In this document: positions 4,700 through 58,392 of the stretch, one piece after another
Layout of the letters: every line of letters begins with the position of its first letter
How positions within the stretch are numbered: the first letter of the stretch is position 1
Source of the DNA: Octopus vulgaris
Taxonomy: Eukaryota
Direction of reading: 5' to 3'
Assembly (NCBI GenBank): GCA_951406725.2
Contig: OX597814.1
Coordinates: 166,656,001 to 166,720,000 of the forward strand
Length of the DNA: 64,000 nt
Position numbers and translations under genes: made by a program
The notes under the pieces: generated by a model
Seen by the model: the letters and a program-made list of their open reading frames with translations, nothing else
Told to the model about the DNA's origin: nothing
Database searches by the model: none

Positions 4700-6420
4700 C
4701 AATGGCACCATGGAAGTAAAGTTATGATGGTGCCAAGGTAGCAGATCTAGATAAGTGATGCAGCAATACCAGCTATAAAATGTGGGACAGCTAGACAAAT
4801 ATTGTGATGGCACAGAGCAGAAATATGGTTATGGCCATGGTGGAGATGTTGGATATGTGCCATAGAGATAATGTGGTGCAGCTAGAGAAGGGATGTTGTG
4901 ACCTCAGAAAGACAATGGTGTGGAATAACACAAATAATGTTGTAATGCCAGGGGAACAAGGTATTGTTAGTAATACAGAAGCAGTAATTTGCAATACAGA
5001 AGTTATGTGGCAACACCATCAAAGCAATTAAGTGATTGCAGCAGCAGAGCAATGTGATAGCAACATAGAAGCAATGGTTAAAAGCACAGGAACAATATGA
5101 TGGTCGCAGAGAGGCAATGTATTAGAAATGGGAACCACTATGGTGGCAAGAGAGAGGTAATGTAATATCAATACAGAAGCAATATAGTAGCAGCATAGAA
5201 GCAACAGTAAAGCAGTATTTGTGCAACAGTGAAGCAATGTGATAACAACGTAACAACAATGTGGTATCAACATAGAAGCAATATATATGCAATACAGCAT
5301 AGAAGCAATGTAGTAACAACAGAGAAGCAATATGGAATCAACAAAGAAGCAATATATGAAGCAACAAAGAAACAAAGTGGTAGCAACAAAAGAGCAATGT
5401 GATAACAACATAACAGCAATGTGGTATCAACATAGAAGCAATATGAAGGGAGAGAAAAGCAATGTGATAGGAATGGAGAAGTAATGTGGTAGCAACAGAG
5501 AAGTAATGTAGTAGGAACAGGAAGAACTATGGTGGCAACAGGGAGGCAATGTAATAACAACACAGATGCAATACAGCATCGAAGCAATGCAGTAACAACA
5601 GTGAAGCAATGTGGAATCAACACAGAAGCAATATATGAAGCAACAAAGAAACAAAGTGGTAGCAACAAAAGAGCAATGTGTAATAACATAACAGCAATGT
5701 GGATTCATCATCATCATCATCATCGTCATCGTCATCGTCGTTTAACGTCCGCTTTCCATGCTAGCATGGGTTGGACGATTTGACTGAGGGCTGGCGAACC
5801 AGATGGCTGTACCAGGCTCCAATCTTGATCTGGCAGTTTCTACAGCTGGATGCCCTTCCTAATGCCAACCACTCCGAGAGTGTAGTGGGTGCTTTTACGT
5901 GCCACCAGCACGGGGGCCAGTCAGGCAGTACTGGCAACGACCACGCTCGAATCTTTTTATGCATGCCACCAGCACAGGTGCCAGTAAGGTGATGCCGGTA
6001 ACGACCACACTCGACTGGTGCCTTTTACATGCCACTGGCATGGAAGCCAGTTAGCCGCTCTGGCAATGATCACGCTTGGATGGTGCTCTTAGCACCCTAC
6101 TAGCACAGGGCTCAAGTGACAGTAAGGCGACGCTGGAAACGATCACACTTTAATGGTGCCTTTTATGTGCCATTGGCACGGAAGCCAGTTCGCCGCTCTG
6201 TCAACGATCACACTCGTATGGTGCTCTTTGCACCCTGCTAGCACGGATACCAGTCATTGAATTTGATTTTGATTTCATAGAAGTAATATAAAGCAACAGA
6301 GAAGCAATGTGGCAGCAAGAAGGAATGAGGTAGCAACAGAAAGGCAGTATATTTGCAACAGAGAAGCAACATAGTAACAACATAGAAGCAATGTGGTATT
6401 AACAGAGAAGTAATGAATTT
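4700..6420. repeat. Degenerate minisatellite (GAAGCAATRT/CAACA-rich, ~20-nt unit) interrupted by a SINE
   Basis: Recurrent AGAAGCAAT(G/A)T motifs and a ~100-bp internal duplication (about 5330-5425 vs 5610-5702). Confidence 0.75.
5706..6277 (-). mobile_element. SINE-like repeat, family D ((GAT)n tail, internal ~60-bp repeats)
   Basis: Shares the conserved GGCGTTAGGAAGGGCATCCAGCTGTAGAAAC...CCAACCCATGCTAGCATGGAAAGCGGACGTTAAACGATGATG segment with 9205-9590, 20455-20983 and 57141-57710. Confidence 0.8.
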
Positions 6421-9204: not shown

Positions 9205-9590
9205 TTGTGCCGGTGGCACGTAAAAAGCACCATCCGAACGTGGCCGATGCCAGCGCCACCTTGACTGGCTTCTGTGCCGATGGCACGTAAAAAGCACCAT
9301 CCCAACGTGGCCGATGCCAGCTCCGCCTTGACTGGCTTCTGTGCCGGTGGCACGTAAAAAGCACCAACCAATCGTGGCCGGTGCCAGACTCCCCTGGCAT
9401 CTGTACCGGTAGCACGTAAAAAGCACCCACTACACTCAAGGAGTGGTTGGTGTTAGGAAAGGCATCTAGCTGTAGAAACACTGCCAGATCAGACTGGAGC
9501 CTGGTGCAGCCTCCTGGCTACCCAGACCCCAGTCGAACCGTCCAACCCGTGCTAGCACGGAAAACGGATGTTAAACGATGATGATGATGA
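9205..9590 (+). mobile_element. SINE-like family D copy
   Basis: Tandem GGCACGTAAAAAGCACC repeats followed by the conserved 3' segment and a (GAT)n tail. Confidence 0.8.
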
Positions 9591-11538: not shown

Positions 11539-12974
11539 ATTCTGTTGTCATGTTGCAGAAGTTAAGCATCATCACCATTTTAATGTCCACTTTTCCATGC
11601 TCAAATGGGTTGGATGGAATTTTGTTGAGGCAGATTTTCTACAGCCCGATACTCTTCCTGTCACTAACCCTCAAATATTTCCATGTAAAGTAATATTTCC
11701 CCATGACCAGACATGTTTTTGCAGAAGACTGAGAATAAAGGACACTGTGCTTACATGATGAAAACATTTGTTTACAACTATCATGTGATGCCAAAATAAG
11801 GAGACAGTAACACACACACACATATACAGATAGATAGATAGATAGATAAATGGATAGAGGACTGGCTTCTTGCAGTATCCATCTACCAAATCCACACACA
11901 AGGCTTTGGTCAGCCTGGGGTTAAAGGAAAAGACATTTGTCCAAAGTGCCATACAGTGAGATTGAACTTAAAATTTTTATGGTTGGGAAGCAAACTTCTT
12001 ACCACACAGCCACACCTGCACCTAAGAATACAAATAAATAATGTAAACCTTAACCTTATACAAAAATAACTGGTGGGCAACAAATTTCTTCTCTTTCTTT
12101 GACTATCGGTTCACTTTTAATCGGTGACATTTAGATTTCATCGATTATTACATAAACTAATAATTACACAACTCTTTTGATACTAAAGCCCACGAGACTG
12201 CTTCTGGTTTTATGATGTGTAACCTCTTGTTTCAAAGTGTCATGTTTAAATTAAAACCTTTAATCTCAATTTCATGTGAAGAAGTTTTGTCACGATATCT
12301 TCTAAGCAGCAGCTTAATAAAGAAAAAAAAAATTAATTATATTACCAAATCGCTCCAAATTATAGGTTATTAACGAAATTAATTGAAACATATGGATAGT
12401 GTATAACATTTATTTTACATCTGTTTTTCTATGCTAGCATGGGTTAGACGAATATGTATAACTGTAGCATTGTTTTAGAGCTGACTATTCTTCTTGTTGC
12501 TAATTTTTAACTATTGTTCAAGTGAGTTTTTATTCAGCTCATCTTTGAAAATACAAATTTGTTGACAGGGAAATGACAACAGGGATGACTGTCCATAATT
12601 CAGCAGTTTTTCTTGTGGTTGCATTTTTCATATAATTTCAAAATACAAAGTATTACTCAGATACATCCATGCATACACACACATACACAGACACACACAC
12701 AAATACAAAAACACATACATATCGTGGCTTGCTCAACACTGACATGTCACGCATTATAACAATGTACTTCATCATCTGCATGATTGGCATACCTCGCTGA
12801 CTGCTTTTCTTTATTTTGCACACAGACCATGACACAGAGGGGGACGGCACAAGGACAGATAGAACACCACAGTGGGGACACAAAACATAAAACGAATGAA
12901 TGAAATGGATAATAATTAATGAGGATGTAATGGCTACTTGAACCCCACCCTCAAGCAGTAACATTTAACTGTTT

Positions 12975-13343
12975 TTTTACTCTTTTACTTGTTTCAGTCA
13001 TTTGACTGTGGCCATGCTGGAGCGCCACCTTTAGTGAAGCAAGTTGACCCCCAGGACTTATTCTTTGTAAGCCAAGTACTTATTCTATCGGTCTCTTTTG
13101 CCAAACCACTAAGTTACGGAGACGAAAACACACCAGCATCGGTTGTCAAGCGATGTTGGGAGGACAAACACACACAAACACATATATATATACACACATA
13201 TATGCAATGGGTTTATTTCAGTTTCCGTCTATCAAATCCATCCACAAGGCTTTGGTCAGCCCGAGGCTACAGTAGAAGACACTTGCCTAAGGTGCCACGT
13301 AGTGGGACTGAACTCGGAACTTACACACAGCTACTCCTATGCC
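12975..13343 (-). mobile_element. tRNA-derived SINE, family A (nested in the ORF1-only element)
   Basis: GGCATAGGAGT...GTTCAGTCCCACT...GGCACCTTAGGCAAGTG head, internal (TA)/(TG) tract and ...AAATGACTGAAACAAGTAAAAGA tail. Confidence 0.85.
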
Positions 13344-13477
13344 TTTTTATAAAAAGTTTTTATATCATTTTTTTTCCTCTTTTCCTTTTTAGCATCATAT
13401 ATGTAGTCTCTTCTAACAAAATTTTAAAAGTTTACTCACGCTTTACATGTTTGTGCATGGCTTCAAATCTACATAAT

Positions 13478-14697
13478 CTATAAAAGGTCATCAAACTCTA
13501 CCTCCACTCCCAATGGGTCTATGTTGGTTCCAAACCTTTCTTTTAATTTTCCATACCTCTCTATTACTATGCCTTTTGTATTTTCTGTGTAAAGCTCCGC
13601 TGGTAATTTTACTCTAATTACCGATTTGAATTTGGTTATTTTCCTTTATATCGTCGTACTTTTTGTAAATGTTACCATATTCCATTTATTTTTCCTGGGC
13701 TTTTTAACTGTTGTTTCTGTGGTGAACTTGCGTTGTCTGGGTAGGTTTCCTTTTGCTGGTGATGCTGGTGGAGATGTGAACCAAATAAGCTGTGCAATGT
13801 CCATTTCACTCTCCTTTTTTTTTTTTGGACTCTTCGGAGGTGAGTTCACTAAATCTTTTCTTTTTCTCCTGGTCACCTCTGTAAATGCTTCCTCTGTGCA
13901 TTTCTCACTTACTAGGGCCGCCACTTCAACACTCTACTCCTGCTGGCTTTCCTCGTTTTTACTGTCTCTTTGGGGGCACCTTATTCTAATGTGTCCCTTC
14001 TCTCTGCATTGATAGCAGGTTGGTAGTCTTCCTCCCATACCACCCTCAACCTTATATCCTCCAGCAGAATCACCTCTTCAGTGATTTTGTTCAAATCTTT
14101 TTGTCCAACCTGAATGACGATTTCCAGGCCATATCCCCATCAATATACCTTCTTTGTCCTTGTCACCTTTAAAATTTTGGTGTCCTCCTCAGTTTTATGC
14201 ATTATGGCTGCCACCAGCTATGCTTCTTTGATTTCTGGGGGTACCCTGCCTATTCTAACTCTGGCAGCCCTATTGCCACAGTAGGTTGGCAGGAGTACCC
14301 ATTTCTTGTGTCCTGAGCGTCACAGTGGCGTGATTTATTGCCTCCTGTTTGTTGGCAAACCTCACCTCCACTGTGCCATATTTTCTGCCTCTTGTGTAGA
14401 ATGTTGTCAGGTTCTTTATCTCCTAAAGACATTCTTCTGTTGCTTCTACTGTGACGATTTTGATTTTCTTGGTAGTTGTAGATAGTGTTCTGTAAAAGAC
14501 TGTTCGCTTCATTGTATTGGTTGTCACTTCTTCTGGTAGGGTCAACTTGATCTCTCCTTCTGAATCAGCCTGTTATACTCTTTCAGATTCTTCTGCTCAA
14601 TTTTGATTTCTTGTACTTCTAGTGTATCTGTAGTTGTACATTTTCCAGCCGCTGAAGCATAACTCCTGACATGTGCTGGAACTGGTTCACAATCCAT
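13478..14697 (-). pseudogene. Decayed gag-like ORF1 with CCHC zinc knuckle
   Basis: About 400 codons with stops and frameshifts: MDCEPVPAHVRSYASAA...RGRKYGTVEVRF...GRLPTCYQCREKGHIRIRCP...FTEVTRRKRK... The CX2CX4HX4C motif is at ~13976-14017; SYA and F-x-x-V-x-RRK motifs are typical of LINE ORF1p. Confidence 0.8.
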
Positions 14698-16467
14698 TTT
14701 CTCTTTTTTTTTTTCCCTTCGCCCCAAATAGGGAAGAAGGTAAACATAAAAATCACAAATCTGCAGGCAAAAACAGTAACGGTATTTTACAAATTCAACA
14801 ATTTAAATCATAGGTTCACGCTCGCAGGAGACCCTTCAACAAGTATATAACAAAGCACAACACGACTTACATCAACTGGAATCAAAAATGATTTAACACT
14901 AACAAAAATACCTCGCAGACTGACACCACTTGTTGTGTCTGTCCACTATTTATTTATAGTGGAACAGCCCACTTCTCTCACTCGGGGATATCCTCCACAA
15001 CATCTCCCCTTTTGAGATTATTTTCTTTACACAGCATTATATTCCCCCATTTTTTTTCTTCTTCACACAGCATTATTATATATATATATTTTTTTTTTAT
15101 ATTCCATTTCTTTTTCTTCCACGCACAATTTTTTTTTCCCAGAATGCCCCAGGTAGTACTGGCTCTACATTCTTACCAGTAGCACTACGAACACATGGCA
15201 ACCTGACTGAAATCCTTCAACGGACATGCATTATTATTATTATTTTTATTTTATTCTTCTTCACACAGCATTATTATATATATATATTTTTTTTTCCACA
15301 TTCCATTTCTTTTTCTTCCATACACAGAATTTTGTTCTCCAAAATGCCCCAGGTAGTACTGGCTCTACATTCTTACCAGTAGTGCTATGAACATATGAGC
15401 GACCTGACTGAAATTCTTCAAATGGAATTTTTTTTTTTTTTTGGTGTCCCACTGTTGTGGAGTGCGTGAAAATTAGAATCCTCGTCAACACTTTTACAAG
15501 GTGAGAGGATTTTTAATATTTTCCACTGTGTGTAGTTCAAATCCTTCAACAGGATTTTTAATATTTTCCACTGAATGTAGTTAAAATTCTTCTTCAATAG
15601 GATTTTAAATATTTTCCCGTGTGTAGTTCGAACCCTTGTCACCACTGTTGTGTTTTGCTTGACACTGATATGTCCCACATTATAACAGCATACTTCGTCA
15701 TCTGAGTGACTGGCCTGAATGGTGTACCTCACCGACTGACACCACTTGTTGTGTCTGTCCACTATTTATTTGTAGTGGAAGAGCCCATTCCTCTCACTCA
15801 GGGGTGTCCTCCACAATACACATATATATATATAAAACAGGCTTCCATACAGTTTCCATCAACTAATTTCTTCACAAAGCATAGCTCATCTCACAGCTAT
15901 AATACTAGAAGACATTTAATCCTTTAATGTTCAGATTACTTTGTCAAATATAATGCTTTTTATTCAAATTATTTTTAATTAATCATCATGCATTATTTTA
16001 TAGCTTTGAGGTATTAATGATATGATTGCTTATATTTAGAATGTTAGTGTAGGTTAAGTGTGAGAGGTTAGATATGGCCAGTTTGAATGTAAAACAGAAT
16101 ATTTGAGCTGGATTTGGCTGGTTTAAATGCTGAAAAGGTTTAGGTGCTGTGCAGCGGGACTGAACCTAAAATCACATGGCTGCAAAGTAAGCTTCTTAAC
16201 CACACAGCTTAACCATGCTTATTTCATTATAAATATTCTTTCATTCTTTTACTTGTTTCAGTCATTTGACTGTGGCTATACTGGAGCACCACCTTAAAGG
16301 ACCTTTTAGTTGAAGAAATCGACCCTAGGGCTTATTCTTTGTTAGCCTAGTACTTATTCTATTGGTCACTTTTGCCGAACTGCTAAGTTACAGCAACATA
16401 AACACATCAATATCAGTTGTAAAGTGATGGGGGGGGGGGACAAACACAAAGACACACACACACATGA

Positions 16468-16498
<31 letters not shown>

Positions 16499-17938
16499 GC
16501 AGGCTTCTTTCAGTTTTCACTCACAAGGCTTTATGTTCAGGAAAGGAATAAATCAATTTGGCACACTTTTCCAGTGGCCATTGTTGTTTATAGCAGTACA
16601 ATACAATAGGGAGATTTTTGCAATGGTTGTTCAACCTGCTGAAAATAGCAGCTAAATCTCCCTTAATTCACACTTTGCCTTTTTAAACTATGAAAAGACA
16701 CATTAAATACTCTTGTCTTCCATACACCTAAAATGGCAGAGTTGGCTGGCCACAACTGAAACACCTTACATCACAGAGCTTGATCAGGATTGACCTGTGG
16801 TTAAACACCACCATCACCACCAAAAATCATTTACATTTCAAACTATTGAGTGGGTATGAGACATTTTGGAACAGCCATTTTGGCACCACCTATTTGGTGT
16901 CACTGATTCTATGCCAACTTATATGACATCAGACATTAATCTTAATGTTTCATTTTAATGACTCCCTTGTTGGCTTCTCTCTCTCACACACACTCTCTCT
17001 CTCTCTCTCTTTCACTCTCTTTCTCTCTCTTTGTCTATGTGGGTGAGCATCTAGTTATGTTTGTATGTATGTCTAATGTCTCTCCCTCTCTCTGTCTCTC
17101 TCTTACTCTCTCTATTGTCTTAAGATTAGGATACATTTAGTGACATCATTATTGAGCAGATTTAGATTACAACAAAAGAAATAATTAGCTCTTATTTGGA
17201 ACAATTAATTTACATGTTGTTAACATGTCAGAGGACCAAGATATGTGATGCACTGCTGTACTCAAGAAGACCTACTCACCACAACAGAATTGAGATCCTT
17301 AAGGCACCGAGCTGACAGAAACATTAGCACACCAGGTGAAATGCTTAACAGTATTTCGTCTGTATATAATTCTAAGTTCAAATTCCGCCGAGGTCCACTT
17401 TGCCTTTCATCCTTTCGGGGTCGATGAATTAAGTACCAGTTGCATACTGGGGTCGATCTAATCGACTTAATCCATTTGTCTGTCCTTGTTTATCCCCTCT
17501 GTGTGTAACCCCTTGTGGAAAGTTAAGAATTGAGATCCTAAAACCATGGTGCCATGTAAAAAGTACCGGTGCTGATGCCACATGAAAAGCAACCAGTACA
17601 TTCTGTAAAGTGGCTGGACTTACGAAGGGCATCCAGCAGTAGGGACCAAACCAAAACAGACAACAGAACCTGGTGTAGTCCTTGGCCTTGCCAGTACCTT
17701 TTTATGTGGCACCATCACCAGTGCGTTTTACTTTGTACCTTGGTTTTAGGATAACAATTCTGTTGTGGTAGGCAACTCTTCTTGAGTACAGCAATACACC
17801 AGTAGCTTAAGTTTCAACAGGAGCAAAGGGTGCAAACATTTTAAAAAATATGATAAATTTCTTTTTAAATGTGTCATGTTAATTTGAAACAGTTAAAACA
17901 TCTGGGGTACTTTTAACTCTTTAGCATTCATATTACAT

Positions 17939-18325: not shown

Positions 18326-20454
18326 AAATGTAAAGCTTATTCATTCACATCATTTTGAATTAATAATGCATTATCTCATAACTCTTGAGATTTTGATGAT
18401 GTGATTGTTTTTTCTTAGAAAGACATTGTAGGGTAGGTGTGACTGGCCAGATCTGGCCAGTTTGAACTTAAAACAGGTGAAATATTTAGGCCGAATATTG
18501 CTGGTTTAAATGCTAAAGGGTTAAATGAACACCTTAGGGTTTCACAAAGATACTCTTTTTGTTAAATTTTATGTTAAAAAAACCTAGTCAGTAGGTGAAC
18601 TGGCAGAAACGTTAGCACGCCAGGCGAAATGCTTAGTGGTATTTCGTCTGCCGCTGTTCTGAGTTCAAATTCTGCCAAGGTCAACTTTGCCTTTCATCCT
18701 TTCGGGGTCGATTAAATAAGTACCAGTTACGCACTGGGGTCGATATAATCGACTTAATCCGTTTGTCTGTCCTTGTTTGTCCTCTGTGCGTTTAGCCCCT
18801 TGTGGGTAGTAAAGAAATAGGTAGGCAGGATAAGCAAGATTGGTAAAATGACCAGCAAAACACCTTGCAGTGTTAAGTTTCATTTCTTTATGTTCTAAGT
18901 TCAAATACCAATAAGGCTGACTTTACCTTCCACATGATGGGTGGATGGAAGACAAAAGTTAATACAAGCATTTGTCAATCAAATACTGGAATCGATCATA
19001 AAAATACTCTCCCAGAAAACGAATGTCCTTGTCCCTAAAAATCAATATCATAACCCAGTTTCTCTGTGTTGTTGTTTTTTTTTAAATTCTATTCCATTCT
19101 ATATCTTTTGAACAAAAGACTTCTTTAAATATCTAACCAAACATGAGACATGGCAATTAAAAGAATAATTTTACAATTAAATTTTCAAGATTCATGACCC
19201 AAATTTTTGACAATATTATTTTTTTTACAGTAACATTTATGACTATTCATTAAATGTACAATAACATATTGAGCTTAATAAATAATTTAAAGAAAATGAA
19301 AATGAAAATTAGCCAAAACCTGACTCGCCTTTAGTTCAGAGAAATAGATAACAGCCAAAATATTTCATTTAGAATAACAGAATAGCACAATAAATGTTTA
19401 TTAGAATGGGGAAGAATATTTTTAAAAATGTTAGTAAAATAAAACTGTATAATAATGAGGAGGGGAGAAGTAAATGGGGTTAGAGTGTGAGGCTAGGGTC
19501 ATGTTCAGTATTAGGATAAGATTCAGTCAAATCCAGGAAGAGAAATTCTCTAATGTCTCTGGCACCATGCTGTCTACTGCTAGAGTTAACATGGCTTCTC
19601 TATAGTCTTTGTAGTCATACAAACACACTTACACATACACACACATATATACGTGTACACATTCATGTGCATACTGATGCACAACCTAACAGATACAGAT
19701 AGCACACACACACAAACACGCATATACATGCACATACATCAGATACATGCGCATGCAAACATACTTCAATACTCTCACAGGCAGAAGAGAAAAAAAATAC
19801 AACATCTCTGCCAACAATATTATCAGTTCTTACAGCAGTAATGATACAGACTGTCTCATGCTAGACTTGATGTCTACAGAAATATCCAGTGTGGTGGACT
19901 ACAATACTAGTTTTCAAAAGAACACTCTGCAATACTTGTAGACATAAGTATATATGAAGCAACAGATATATACATGTGTGTATGTATGTATGAATGAATA
20001 TATGAATGTATGTGAATGTGTGTGTATGTGTGTATGTGTTTATGTGTGTGTGTGTGTATGTGTGTGTTAGTGTGTGTGTTCCTTAGAATAAATAGCCATA
20101 GTTAGGTAATTCTTTGTGCCTTGGGAGAAAGAAGAACAAATAATGAATTAAATTATCAAGGAGTTCAAGTGCGATAGAGAAAAACTTATAAATGACGGCA
20201 AACAGAGAATGAAAAAACAGCAAGATGGGTTGACATAGTTGAAATATTGAGCTTTAGAGGAAAAGAAAACATAAAACAAGCAAACAAAAGAAAAAAAATC
20301 ATGAGTAACTCGAAGATAAGAAAACTTGACTCAAAATTCAAAAGGAAATTAAATTGCTAAAATATATAAAAATATGACTAACTTCGTTAGAGCAATCAGG
20401 TTGTTGAGACAGATGAAATTGATGGTCTTAGACTGAACAGTGGTAAATTTGCAT

Positions 20455-57170: not shown

Positions 57171-57710
57171 TTAACGTCCGCTTTCCATGCTAGCATGGGT
57201 TGGACGGTTCAACTGGTGTCTGGGGAGCCCGAAGGCTGCACCAGGCCAGTCAGATCTGGCAGTGTTTCTACAGCTGGATGCCCTTCCTAACGCCAACTAC
57301 TCCGAGAGTGTAGTGGGTGATTTTATGTGCCACCGACACAGGTGCCAGACGAGGCTGGCGAACGGCCACGCTCGGATGGTGTTTTTATGTGCCACCGACA
57401 CAGGTGCCAGACGAGGCTGGCGAACGGCCACGCTCGGATGGTGTTTTTATGTGCCACCGACACAGGTGCCAGACAAGGCTAGCAGACGACCACGCTCGGA
57501 TGGTGTTTTTATGTGCCACCGACACAGGTGCCAGACAAGGCTAGCAGACGACCACGCTCGGATGGTGTTTTTTATGTGCCACCGACACAGGTGCCAGACG
57601 AGGCTGGCGAACGGCCACGCTCGGATGGTGTTTTTATGTGCCACCGACACAGGTGCCAGATAGGCTAGCAGACGACCACGCTCGGATGGTGTTTTTATGT
57701 GCCACCGACA
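57141..57710 (-). mobile_element. SINE-like family D copy with an expanded 62-bp minisatellite
   Basis: Six-plus 62-bp units at 57320-57710; (CAT)n tail; inserted in a SINE A relic. Confidence 0.85.
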
Positions 57711-58392
57711 CATCGGTTTGATCAGCTAAACCCTTCAAGGCAAATTCCTGGTATGACTGTAGGCCAATGACCGAAACAAAAGAATACAAGAATCGGTTAA
57801 AGATTTTAAATTAATAGGAATGATCCCATGTCTCGAAGCAATACAATTTGAATCACATGAAAACACTTCATGGTTTACTGGTTGAAGCGAAAATTTTCGG
57901 TAAATACCATCAGAATGGTTGCAGCCACCACCCTTGCAAAGGTGATGAAGGGCACATCACATGATTTGATCATAGATACACGGTGTCTGGAAAATAAAAA
58001 TGACTCGATGATTAATTACGTTTGGACTAATAAAAAAAGTCATTCTTTGTGTTTTGTCATGGAGAAAATTTCTCGATGTTGACAATGGAGTAAATACACT
58101 AGAGTTGAGCAACTTTCATAAATTTACAGGTATATCTGATATATACGCATAAACATTGGCGTAGAAGGTATATATTAAACATTTACTCATTAAAATATAG
58201 GGAATGATACACTAAACAAAATAAGATAATGCACATGAAGTGATGTTCTGAGTTAGCGAACATCCAGAATGGACTGGAGCAAAAGAACTAGTAATGTGTG
58301 TGATTGTGTGTGTGTGTGTGTGGTCAGTAGTTCATATATCCGAAAACGAAACACACCTTAAAGCATTAAAGCGATAATATATTTTGGGGGAA

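Follow-up and report, generated by a model that had tools for sequence, protein, structure and literature searches.

How does one retrotransposon come to be split, at a single base position, by another that carries no ORF2? The question is raised by a stretch of the Octopus vulgaris genome of 64,000 nucleotides (contig OX597814.1, positions 166,656,001 to 166,720,000; from here on, the window), in which the 3′ long terminal repeat (LTR) of a small non-coding element, a terminal-repeat retrotransposon in miniature (TRIM), is interrupted by a Tx1/L1-group retroposon with a single open reading frame, ORF1, for a protein that binds RNA. We find that ORF1-only elements have been inserted repeatedly at one 14-bp site of the TRIM LTR. 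On balance we favor the reading in which the retroposon keeps entering this site, likely by target-primed reverse transcription (TPRT) with a borrowed ORF2 enzyme, and likely using the LTR promoter 30 bp upstream.

Repeated insertion at one LTR site

The preliminary description of the window, made from its letters alone, placed the split of the 3′ LTR at an initiator (Inr)-like TCAGT. That is where we find it: on the minus strand, the LTR breaks off after 14922-14909 and picks up again at 12803-12790. The insert is flanked by a 14-bp duplication, CAGTC(N)GCGAGGTA.

14909..14922, minus strand: 5′ copy of the 14-bp site (CAGTCTGCGAGGTA), beginning at the Inr-like TCAGT; likely donor-carried
12804..14908, minus strand: ORF1-only Tx1/L1-group retroposon with 5′ untranslated region (UTR), ORF1, 3′ UTR and a tail that ends in AATAAAGAAAAG and lacks poly(A)
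12790..12803, minus strand: 3′ copy of the 14-bp site (CAGTCAGCGAGGTA)

The string CAGTC(T/A)GCGAGGTAT can be read at 14922-14908 and at 12803-12789, but we take the duplication to be 14 bp and not 15, since position 15 is mostly C in targets and mostly T in the 5′ ends of the elements.

Counting only loci found by the element sequence alone, 23 of 31 distinct 3′ junctions lie at this site, the window included (a script gave 24, from which we subtracted L067, in another LTR family), and so do 25 of 29 5′ junctions, 18 behind the U3 part of the LTR and 7 behind the tail of another element. Both fractions exceed the 20% of flanks above which a repeat is called a target in PMC4494074. Two exact junction patterns have 19 and 25 matches in the genome, versus 0 for reversed-pattern controls. 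The pattern that joins the site to the LTR bases downstream of it, with 25 matches, comprises 10 filled and 15 empty sites, 2 of the empty ones being duplicates. The insertion is in the sense orientation at all junctions seen.

[quoted passage not shown] Five elements (the window, L274, L272, L271 and L270) have one LTR filled and its partner empty, and L265 has different elements in its two LTRs; therefore, copying of the insert along with the LTR is excluded. The U3 is closest to the partner LTR of the same host in the window (0.90) and in L274 (0.89). Moreover, several divergent ORF1-only families are found at the same site (L255, L256, L258, L259-261, L262, L264). The TRIM integrates independently; entry of the retroposon follows, into either of the two LTRs, a solo LTR, or the position ahead of an earlier copy. 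Site-specific targeting of this LTR, which the preliminary description raised as a possibility, would have been contradicted by insertion of other copies at unrelated sequences, or by repeats that never occur elsewhere as paired LTRs with TSDs. We looked for both and found neither; the flanks of the ORF1-only copies are mostly at the same LTR site.

The two copies of the site differ from each other. At position 6, G is found in 0 of 22 5′ copies, versus 11 of 26 3′ copies (p = 4 × 10−4), and in 26 of 52 empty LTRs; C or T stands there in 6 of 22 5′ copies versus 0 of 26 3′ copies (p = 0.006). As an example, the empty partner LTR has G at this position in the window, L274 and L272, against T, C and C, respectively, in the 5′ copy, while in two of these three the U3 directly upstream best matches the host's own partner. 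Because the G that is common at position 6 of targets never appears in the 5′ copies, the 5′ copy of the site was likely carried in the RNA of the element and written in at the 5′ junction. There is precedent for annealing of RNA to target in SART1 and R1Bm (PMC7265360).

A TRIM as the host

The host is a non-coding LTR element on the minus strand of the window, with paired LTRs of about 170 bp, a site for primer binding (PBS) and a polypurine tract (PPT).

15646..15818, minus strand: 5′ LTR, uninterrupted, 173 bp; empty target CAGTCGGTGAGGTA; start decayed to TATTGTG, end CACAACA
15634..15644, minus strand: PBS TGGTGACAAGG, a CpG-decayed form of TGGCGACGAGG
15014..15633, minus strand: TRIM interior, non-coding, built of 45-bp and 200-bp repeats; common to other copies
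15003..15013, minus strand: PPT AAAAGGGGAGA
14923..15002, minus strand: first, U3-like part of the 3′ LTR, 80 bp, starting TGTTGTG at 15002; TATAAATAAATA at 14958-14947
12720..12789, minus strand: remainder of the 3′ LTR, R/U5-like; 9 bp are lost just after the insert, and the end is decayed (CCACGATA)

The U3-like part of the 3′ LTR is 90% identical to the 5′ LTR of the same element, versus 69-85% to other copies. Most of the anatomy that had been read from the letters could be located on the minus strand: TA(T/C)AAATAAATA followed by TCAGTC, present in both LTRs of the window, the PBS, the PPT, and the non-coding interior made of repeats (45-bp units ×2.9 at 15506-15637 and 200-bp units ×1.9 at 15051-15421). 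The LTR pair also stands, but the proposed TGTTGTG/CACAACA termini hold for only half of it, as two of the four have decayed in this copy (TATTGTG at the start of the 5′ LTR, CCACGATA at the end of the 3′ LTR); the copy is without a clean 5-bp TSD. The view of the PBS as a CpG-decayed TGGCGACGAGG is borne out by copies L274 and L249, where the undecayed form is seen.

A search with the LTR of the genome (2.8 Gb) gave 264 candidates, of which 40 were scored. Paired LTRs surround the same interior at many loci (L002/13, L003/6, L007, L009, L011, L023, L232, L233, L237 and others). Among 28 start/end pairs, the 5-bp TSD is exact in 14 and has one mismatch in 4, as left by an integrase; 5 of the remaining 10 begin, on our reading, at a 3′ LTR. 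Intact copies with TSDs, for which the preliminary description had suggested a search, thus exist at other loci. With two short TG...CA LTRs, and a PBS and PPT bordering a short interior that has no coding match, the element qualifies as a TRIM. A split-repeat identity of the Ngaro type was dropped because of the TG..CA ends, the PBS, the PPT and the 5-bp TSDs. At the gathering score, Rfam has no match in 12500-16000, so this is not an LTR derived from tRNA or 5S as in the TRIMp3 type (Cassandra, Helenus, Ajax).

The same PBS also precedes Gypsy-like, gag-pol-like coding DNA in other LTR families (L134 and L160), and other LTR families with this PBS carry DNA coding for RNase H. An autonomous gag-pol element with the LTR of the TRIM was not found beside 20 extended LTR loci. 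One pattern search for a primer tRNA gene matching the PBS gave 0 matches; in the Mag lineage of Gypsy elements the PBS is complementary to tRNA-Ser or tRNA-Leu, and here the primer may be tRNA-Ser(GCU). A link to the Mag lineage is a candidate reading, with which the shared PBS and the 5-bp TSD are consistent.

The insert is a half-LINE

The insert spans 2.1 kb, about 1.75 kb of which is retroposon once a short interspersed element (SINE) is taken out.

13443..14697, minus strand: ORF1, broken by stops and frameshifts; N-terminal domain common with the ORF1 of an autonomous long interspersed element (LINE), CCHC knuckle, charged linker, and a conserved C-terminal domain of about 85 aa
12979..13343, minus strand: SINE, 365 bp, a later insertion in the 3′ UTR of the retroposon; abundant, with many copies in the window, and missing from most other copies of the retroposon

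ORF1 matches, at 32% identity (E-value 4 × 10−27), the ORF1 sequence of a young APE-RT-zf LINE in this genome, and the two elements have one type of tail in common, which speaks for a LINE ancestry of the insert. The ORF2 of that LINE has 1149 aa, and its best match in the PDB is human L1 ORF2p. In the close family of the retroposon the tail comes directly after ORF1, with no ORF2, as in HAL1-like elements where only ORF1 is present. A search of the genome with ORF1 gave 13,901 candidates, and among the 108 superfamily loci examined an ORF2 lies within 3.5 kb in 5, of which three are part of the following element in a tandem and the other two are unassigned. The RT that follows ORF1 in L156 was rejected as an ORF2 partner, being by its motifs an insertion of what we take to be the Penelope type. 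The marks of TPRT are there: a TSD of 10-20 bp, 5′ truncation, and an AATAAA/A-rich end. By its sequence, the insert is an ORF1-only half-LINE of the Tx1/L1 group. It is not HAL1 proper, which derives from the L1 ORF1 of vertebrates (mammals), as its closest LINE ORF1 is the genome's own CCHC-type one. A search for protein homologs of ORF1 returned only two Octopus bimaculoides proteins. Near-identical pieces of the window locus are present in contigs of three organisms, two of the pieces including the 3′ junction, and therefore the insertion is old. The Tx1-type label is an assumption of ours, made from features that we associate with the group and from a listing of L1-Tx1 families in O. vulgaris (PMC13282606); no named Tx1 reference came up among the matches.

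The C-terminal domain of ORF1 (L151:2350-2628; about 13650-13443, minus strand, in the window) could be modeled from a 47-sequence alignment with a pLDDT of 84, while the whole ORF1 folded without an alignment reaches only 36. The domain model has no Foldseek match at E ≤ 0.001 and a best Z of 5.5, to common alpha/beta folds; its sequence has no convincing match in Pfam or the PDB, and no tblastn match in the autonomous ORF1s. These comparisons are uninformative as to function, and we regard the modeled domain as a candidate for targeting or oligomerization. The 3′ tail of the retroposon shows no stable fold (z = +1.6).

An abundant SINE has the same 3′ tail as the half-element and the Tx1-type LINEs (window 17478-17520, 18765-18820, 26355, 26540, 40967 and 58527); its 3′ flanks vary, so it is not site-specific. 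The window also holds tandem arrays at 5224-5702 (22-bp units), 9206-9427 (67-bp) and 57316-57712 (62-bp).

Autonomous relatives

The autonomous LINEs of the genome have 3′ flanks of their own. In one young family (L191-L210, e.g. G000:C15:16245945-16254945) (TCTA)n comes after the element at each of the 20 loci shown, a second family is not at the TRIM site, and a third is in a TRIM LTR in 1 of 30 loci. Among 94 matches to the C-terminus of ORF2, only L244 (G000:C9:91422720-91423155) is truly at the TRIM site, a 5′-truncated LINE bearing ORF2 and 1 of 30 loci of its family. L273 was rejected as a partner, since its own tail stops about 140 bp short of the site and the tail of a truncated half-element comes next. 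The L191-L210 copies have ORF2s about 98% identical and at least two different 5′ UTR/ORF1 N-terminal regions, which suggests, as far as sequence goes, swapping of ORF1.

Sister families and the spacing to TATA

Sister families of ORF1-only elements, with TSDs of 10-20 bp, occupy other Gypsy-type LTRs and positions immediately ahead of hammerhead-like cores. In the LTR families (L134, L148, L160, L157, L339, L371, L395 and L105/L108/L149) the half-elements sit about 27-35 bp behind TATA-like motifs, and some of these hosts retain gag/pol-like coding remains. Just 5′ of hammerhead-like cores, they occur in two or three repeat families (L152, L153, L155, L166, L167, L341; L165, L342, L362, L387, L393; L367, L400). 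We call these cores hammerhead-like because of a CTGATGA...GAAA core seen by eye, which we take to be the motif; in 8 sister loci, Rfam has no match to a hammerhead family. In L400 a half-element and an element with both ORF1 and ORF2 have one common TSD, which gives this sister site, unlike the TRIM site, a candidate ORF2 partner. Elsewhere, in a SINE array, L384 has a half-element that lies a few bases inside a SINE head.

Among 22 non-tandem, TSD-bearing elements, a script places the start of a TATA-like motif (7 or 8 of 8 positions) at −38..−26 in 13; without 3 tandems recognized by eye, the count is 12 of 19. The interval was picked after the data were seen, and the loci come from no more than about 8-9 target families. 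The motif has a background rate of 9.6%, and in the neighboring intervals there are 0, 6 and 1 matches. TCAGT agrees with the Inr consensus quoted for LTRs in PMC3601003, and it is likely, judging from the motifs, that it marks a transcription start. Two contigs from a single study end close to the 5′ end of the element; contigs assembled from runs that are presumably RNA cannot show a start, and we leave these two out of the count. Capture of the LTR promoter by the insert, the other possibility that had been raised for this locus, would fit both the TATA spacing and a donor-carried 5′ copy of the site.

Proposed mechanism and alternatives

In the mechanism that we propose, RNA polymerase II would start at the TCAGT of the LTR, so that the RNA of the element begins with the 14-nt site. 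ORF1p would co-assemble with the ORF1p/ORF2p of an autonomous partner, which would recognize the Tx1-type 3′ tail, and the endonuclease would nick the bottom strand where the site begins. Synthesis of the cDNA would finish in the copy of the site carried by the RNA, and that end could then anneal to the nicked top strand, giving a precise 5′ junction with the variants of the donor. Since the site is rebuilt at both ends, arrays would lengthen, and every further full-length insertion into an LTR would again lie behind a promoter.

Several observations weigh against this reading. Eight of the 31 3′ junctions are elsewhere (3 in other LTR-like sequences, 1 in a tandem, 4 unassigned). In L272 the U3 matches a different locus better (0.84) than it does the partner LTR (0.78), and the 22-nt duplication of L265, with its private variants, resembles a plain local duplication of DNA. 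Among the three autonomous families checked, none is an ORF2 partner specific for the site CAGTCRGCGAGGTA. Every copy of the ORF1-only family is old, at about 70-91% identity to that of the window, and most are broken. To the after-the-fact choice of the TATA interval and its few target families we add that −51..−39 also has 6 TATA-like matches. Finally, the AT-rich motif may be a polyadenylation signal and the site an R/U5 border.

The alternative to which we give a real, though minor, chance is a targeted TPRT in which specificity comes only from the partner's endonuclease reading DNA, the element has an internal promoter of its own that starts with bases similar to the site, and the LTR is just a safe multicopy landing place. 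Kojima 2015 (PMC4494074) ascribes the choice of target by Tx1 mainly to the endonuclease, each of the autonomous families here has its own 3′ flank, and the 7 of 29 5′ junctions that are in tandem have no TATA 30 bp upstream. A donor-carried 5′ copy would be equally expected wherever the 5′ end of the element includes the site. On the other hand, the unrelated targets, which comprise several LTR families and two or three hammerhead repeats, have in common the TATA-like spacing and not the sequence, and the uniform sense orientation also speaks against an endonuclease acting alone. Should the site instead be the polyadenylation border of the LTR, with elements attracted or primed via 3′-end processing and no capture of a promoter, one would understand why AATAAA overlaps the AT-rich motif in the window copies, 26-28 nt before a CA. 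In Mag-type LTRs AATAAA is indeed better conserved than TATA, Mag A having a clear AATAAA and no conserved TATA (PMC3601003). But GATAAATA stands in many copies, the sister targets contain no AATAAA and instead TATAAAA, TATAAAG or TATATAG, and the donor-specific bases of the 5′ copy are left unexplained, all of which makes this quite improbable.

It is very improbable, in our judgment, that a single ancient insertion was multiplied together with the LTR, by reverse transcription of the TRIM or by segmental duplication. The filled LTRs do belong to elements with their own 5-bp TSDs, and there are near-duplicate loci (L035/L036, L253/L254 and L374/L391). Yet copying of an LTR equalizes both LTRs, and the five elements with one filled and one empty LTR, together with the different elements of L265, have not been equalized; the tandem arrays and the at least five unrelated ORF1 families at the same site do not fit either.

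The promoter-capturing TPRT that we favor can be extended to a broader proposal, tentative and in our eyes rather doubtful as a whole. The octopus half-Tx1 would form a promoter-less superfamily homing on the transcription start sites of other retroelements. The RNA of each lineage would begin with the first ~14 transcribed bases of its host, and would re-find and rebuild the start site, so that the choice of target would be partly inherited through RNA and hosts could be switched without a new endonuclease. At about 40% occupancy of intact sites, such a parasite would silence the host TRIM.

Implications and comparison with known systems

What we observe is a parasite of a parasite, an ORF1-only element that occupies roughly 40% of the copies of one base position in the LTR of another transposon. 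If the start-site reading is true, a whole superfamily with many unrelated targets would obey one simple rule of position, some 30 bp downstream of a TATA box, and would offer a route to how Tx1-type specificity is kept or switched, be it through reading by the endonuclease, pairing of RNA and target, or tethering to the pre-initiation complex. The question of target specificity is relevant to the use of site-specific LINEs as tools for gene insertion. On the practical side, automatic repeat libraries for octopus likely join LTR halves to ORF1-only elements.

We found no description of this octopus system in a literature coverage that lacked most subscription journals and the Repbase reports. 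Its host resembles known TRIMs (PMC10886601), which occur in bivalves and other animals, in having short paired LTRs, a PBS, a PPT, no coding capacity, and a length under or near 1 kb. With the Mag lineage of Gypsy (PMC3286476) it shares 5-bp TSDs, LTRs of about 150-200 bp, and internal tandem repeats. It differs from both in that no autonomous element with its LTR was found at the 20 extended loci. Like HAL1, HeT-A and Ag-Sponge, the insert has a 5′ UTR, ORF1 and a 3′ tail, no ORF2, and presumed mobilization in trans; the list of LINEs with only ORF1 in PMC5786205 comprises L1, Jockey and CR1 clades, whereas the octopus element is a Tx1-type relative specific for an LTR site. HeT-A takes its promoter from the 3′ UTR of the neighbor upstream (PMC5537684); in octopus the promoter would come from a foreign LTR.

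Annealing at the 5′ junction is known for R2. R1Bm and SART1 (PMC7265360) are alike in that RNA matching the target anneals at the junction and in their reliance on transcription of the target, and R2 is co-transcribed with its target, as cited in PMC4494074. These elements are autonomous and have rDNA or telomere targets, whereas the octopus case rests on the asymmetry in base composition. SINEU-3 and SINEU-2 in Mariner-N4_AMi (PMC4494074) are likewise non-autonomous passengers at a Tx1 target, with transcription from the flanking target proposed; they differ in being non-coding, with heads derived from small nuclear RNA, and in residing in a DNA transposon.

The closest parallel is with crocodilians, where Tx1-8_Crp and Tx1-4_AMi, also of the Tx1/L1 group, insert preferentially into specific LTR retrotransposons (PMC4494074). 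Other Tx1 families with transposon targets in that paper are Tx1L in Tx1D, Tx1-Mar and Tx1-9_AMi; related cases of precise insertion into another transposon are known in frogs and crocodilians. The octopus unit differs in having no ORF2, a non-coding TRIM as its host, and several families at one site. That site is a single 14-bp position, Inr-like and ~30 bp behind a TATA-like motif; for the crocodilian elements, the position in the LTR is not given in the portion of that text available. Already published, then, are the targeting of LTRs by Tx1 in crocodilians and half-LINEs such as HAL1; new here are the TRIM-LTR branch, its high occupancy, the common spacing to TATA, and the asymmetry between the 5′ and 3′ copies of the site.

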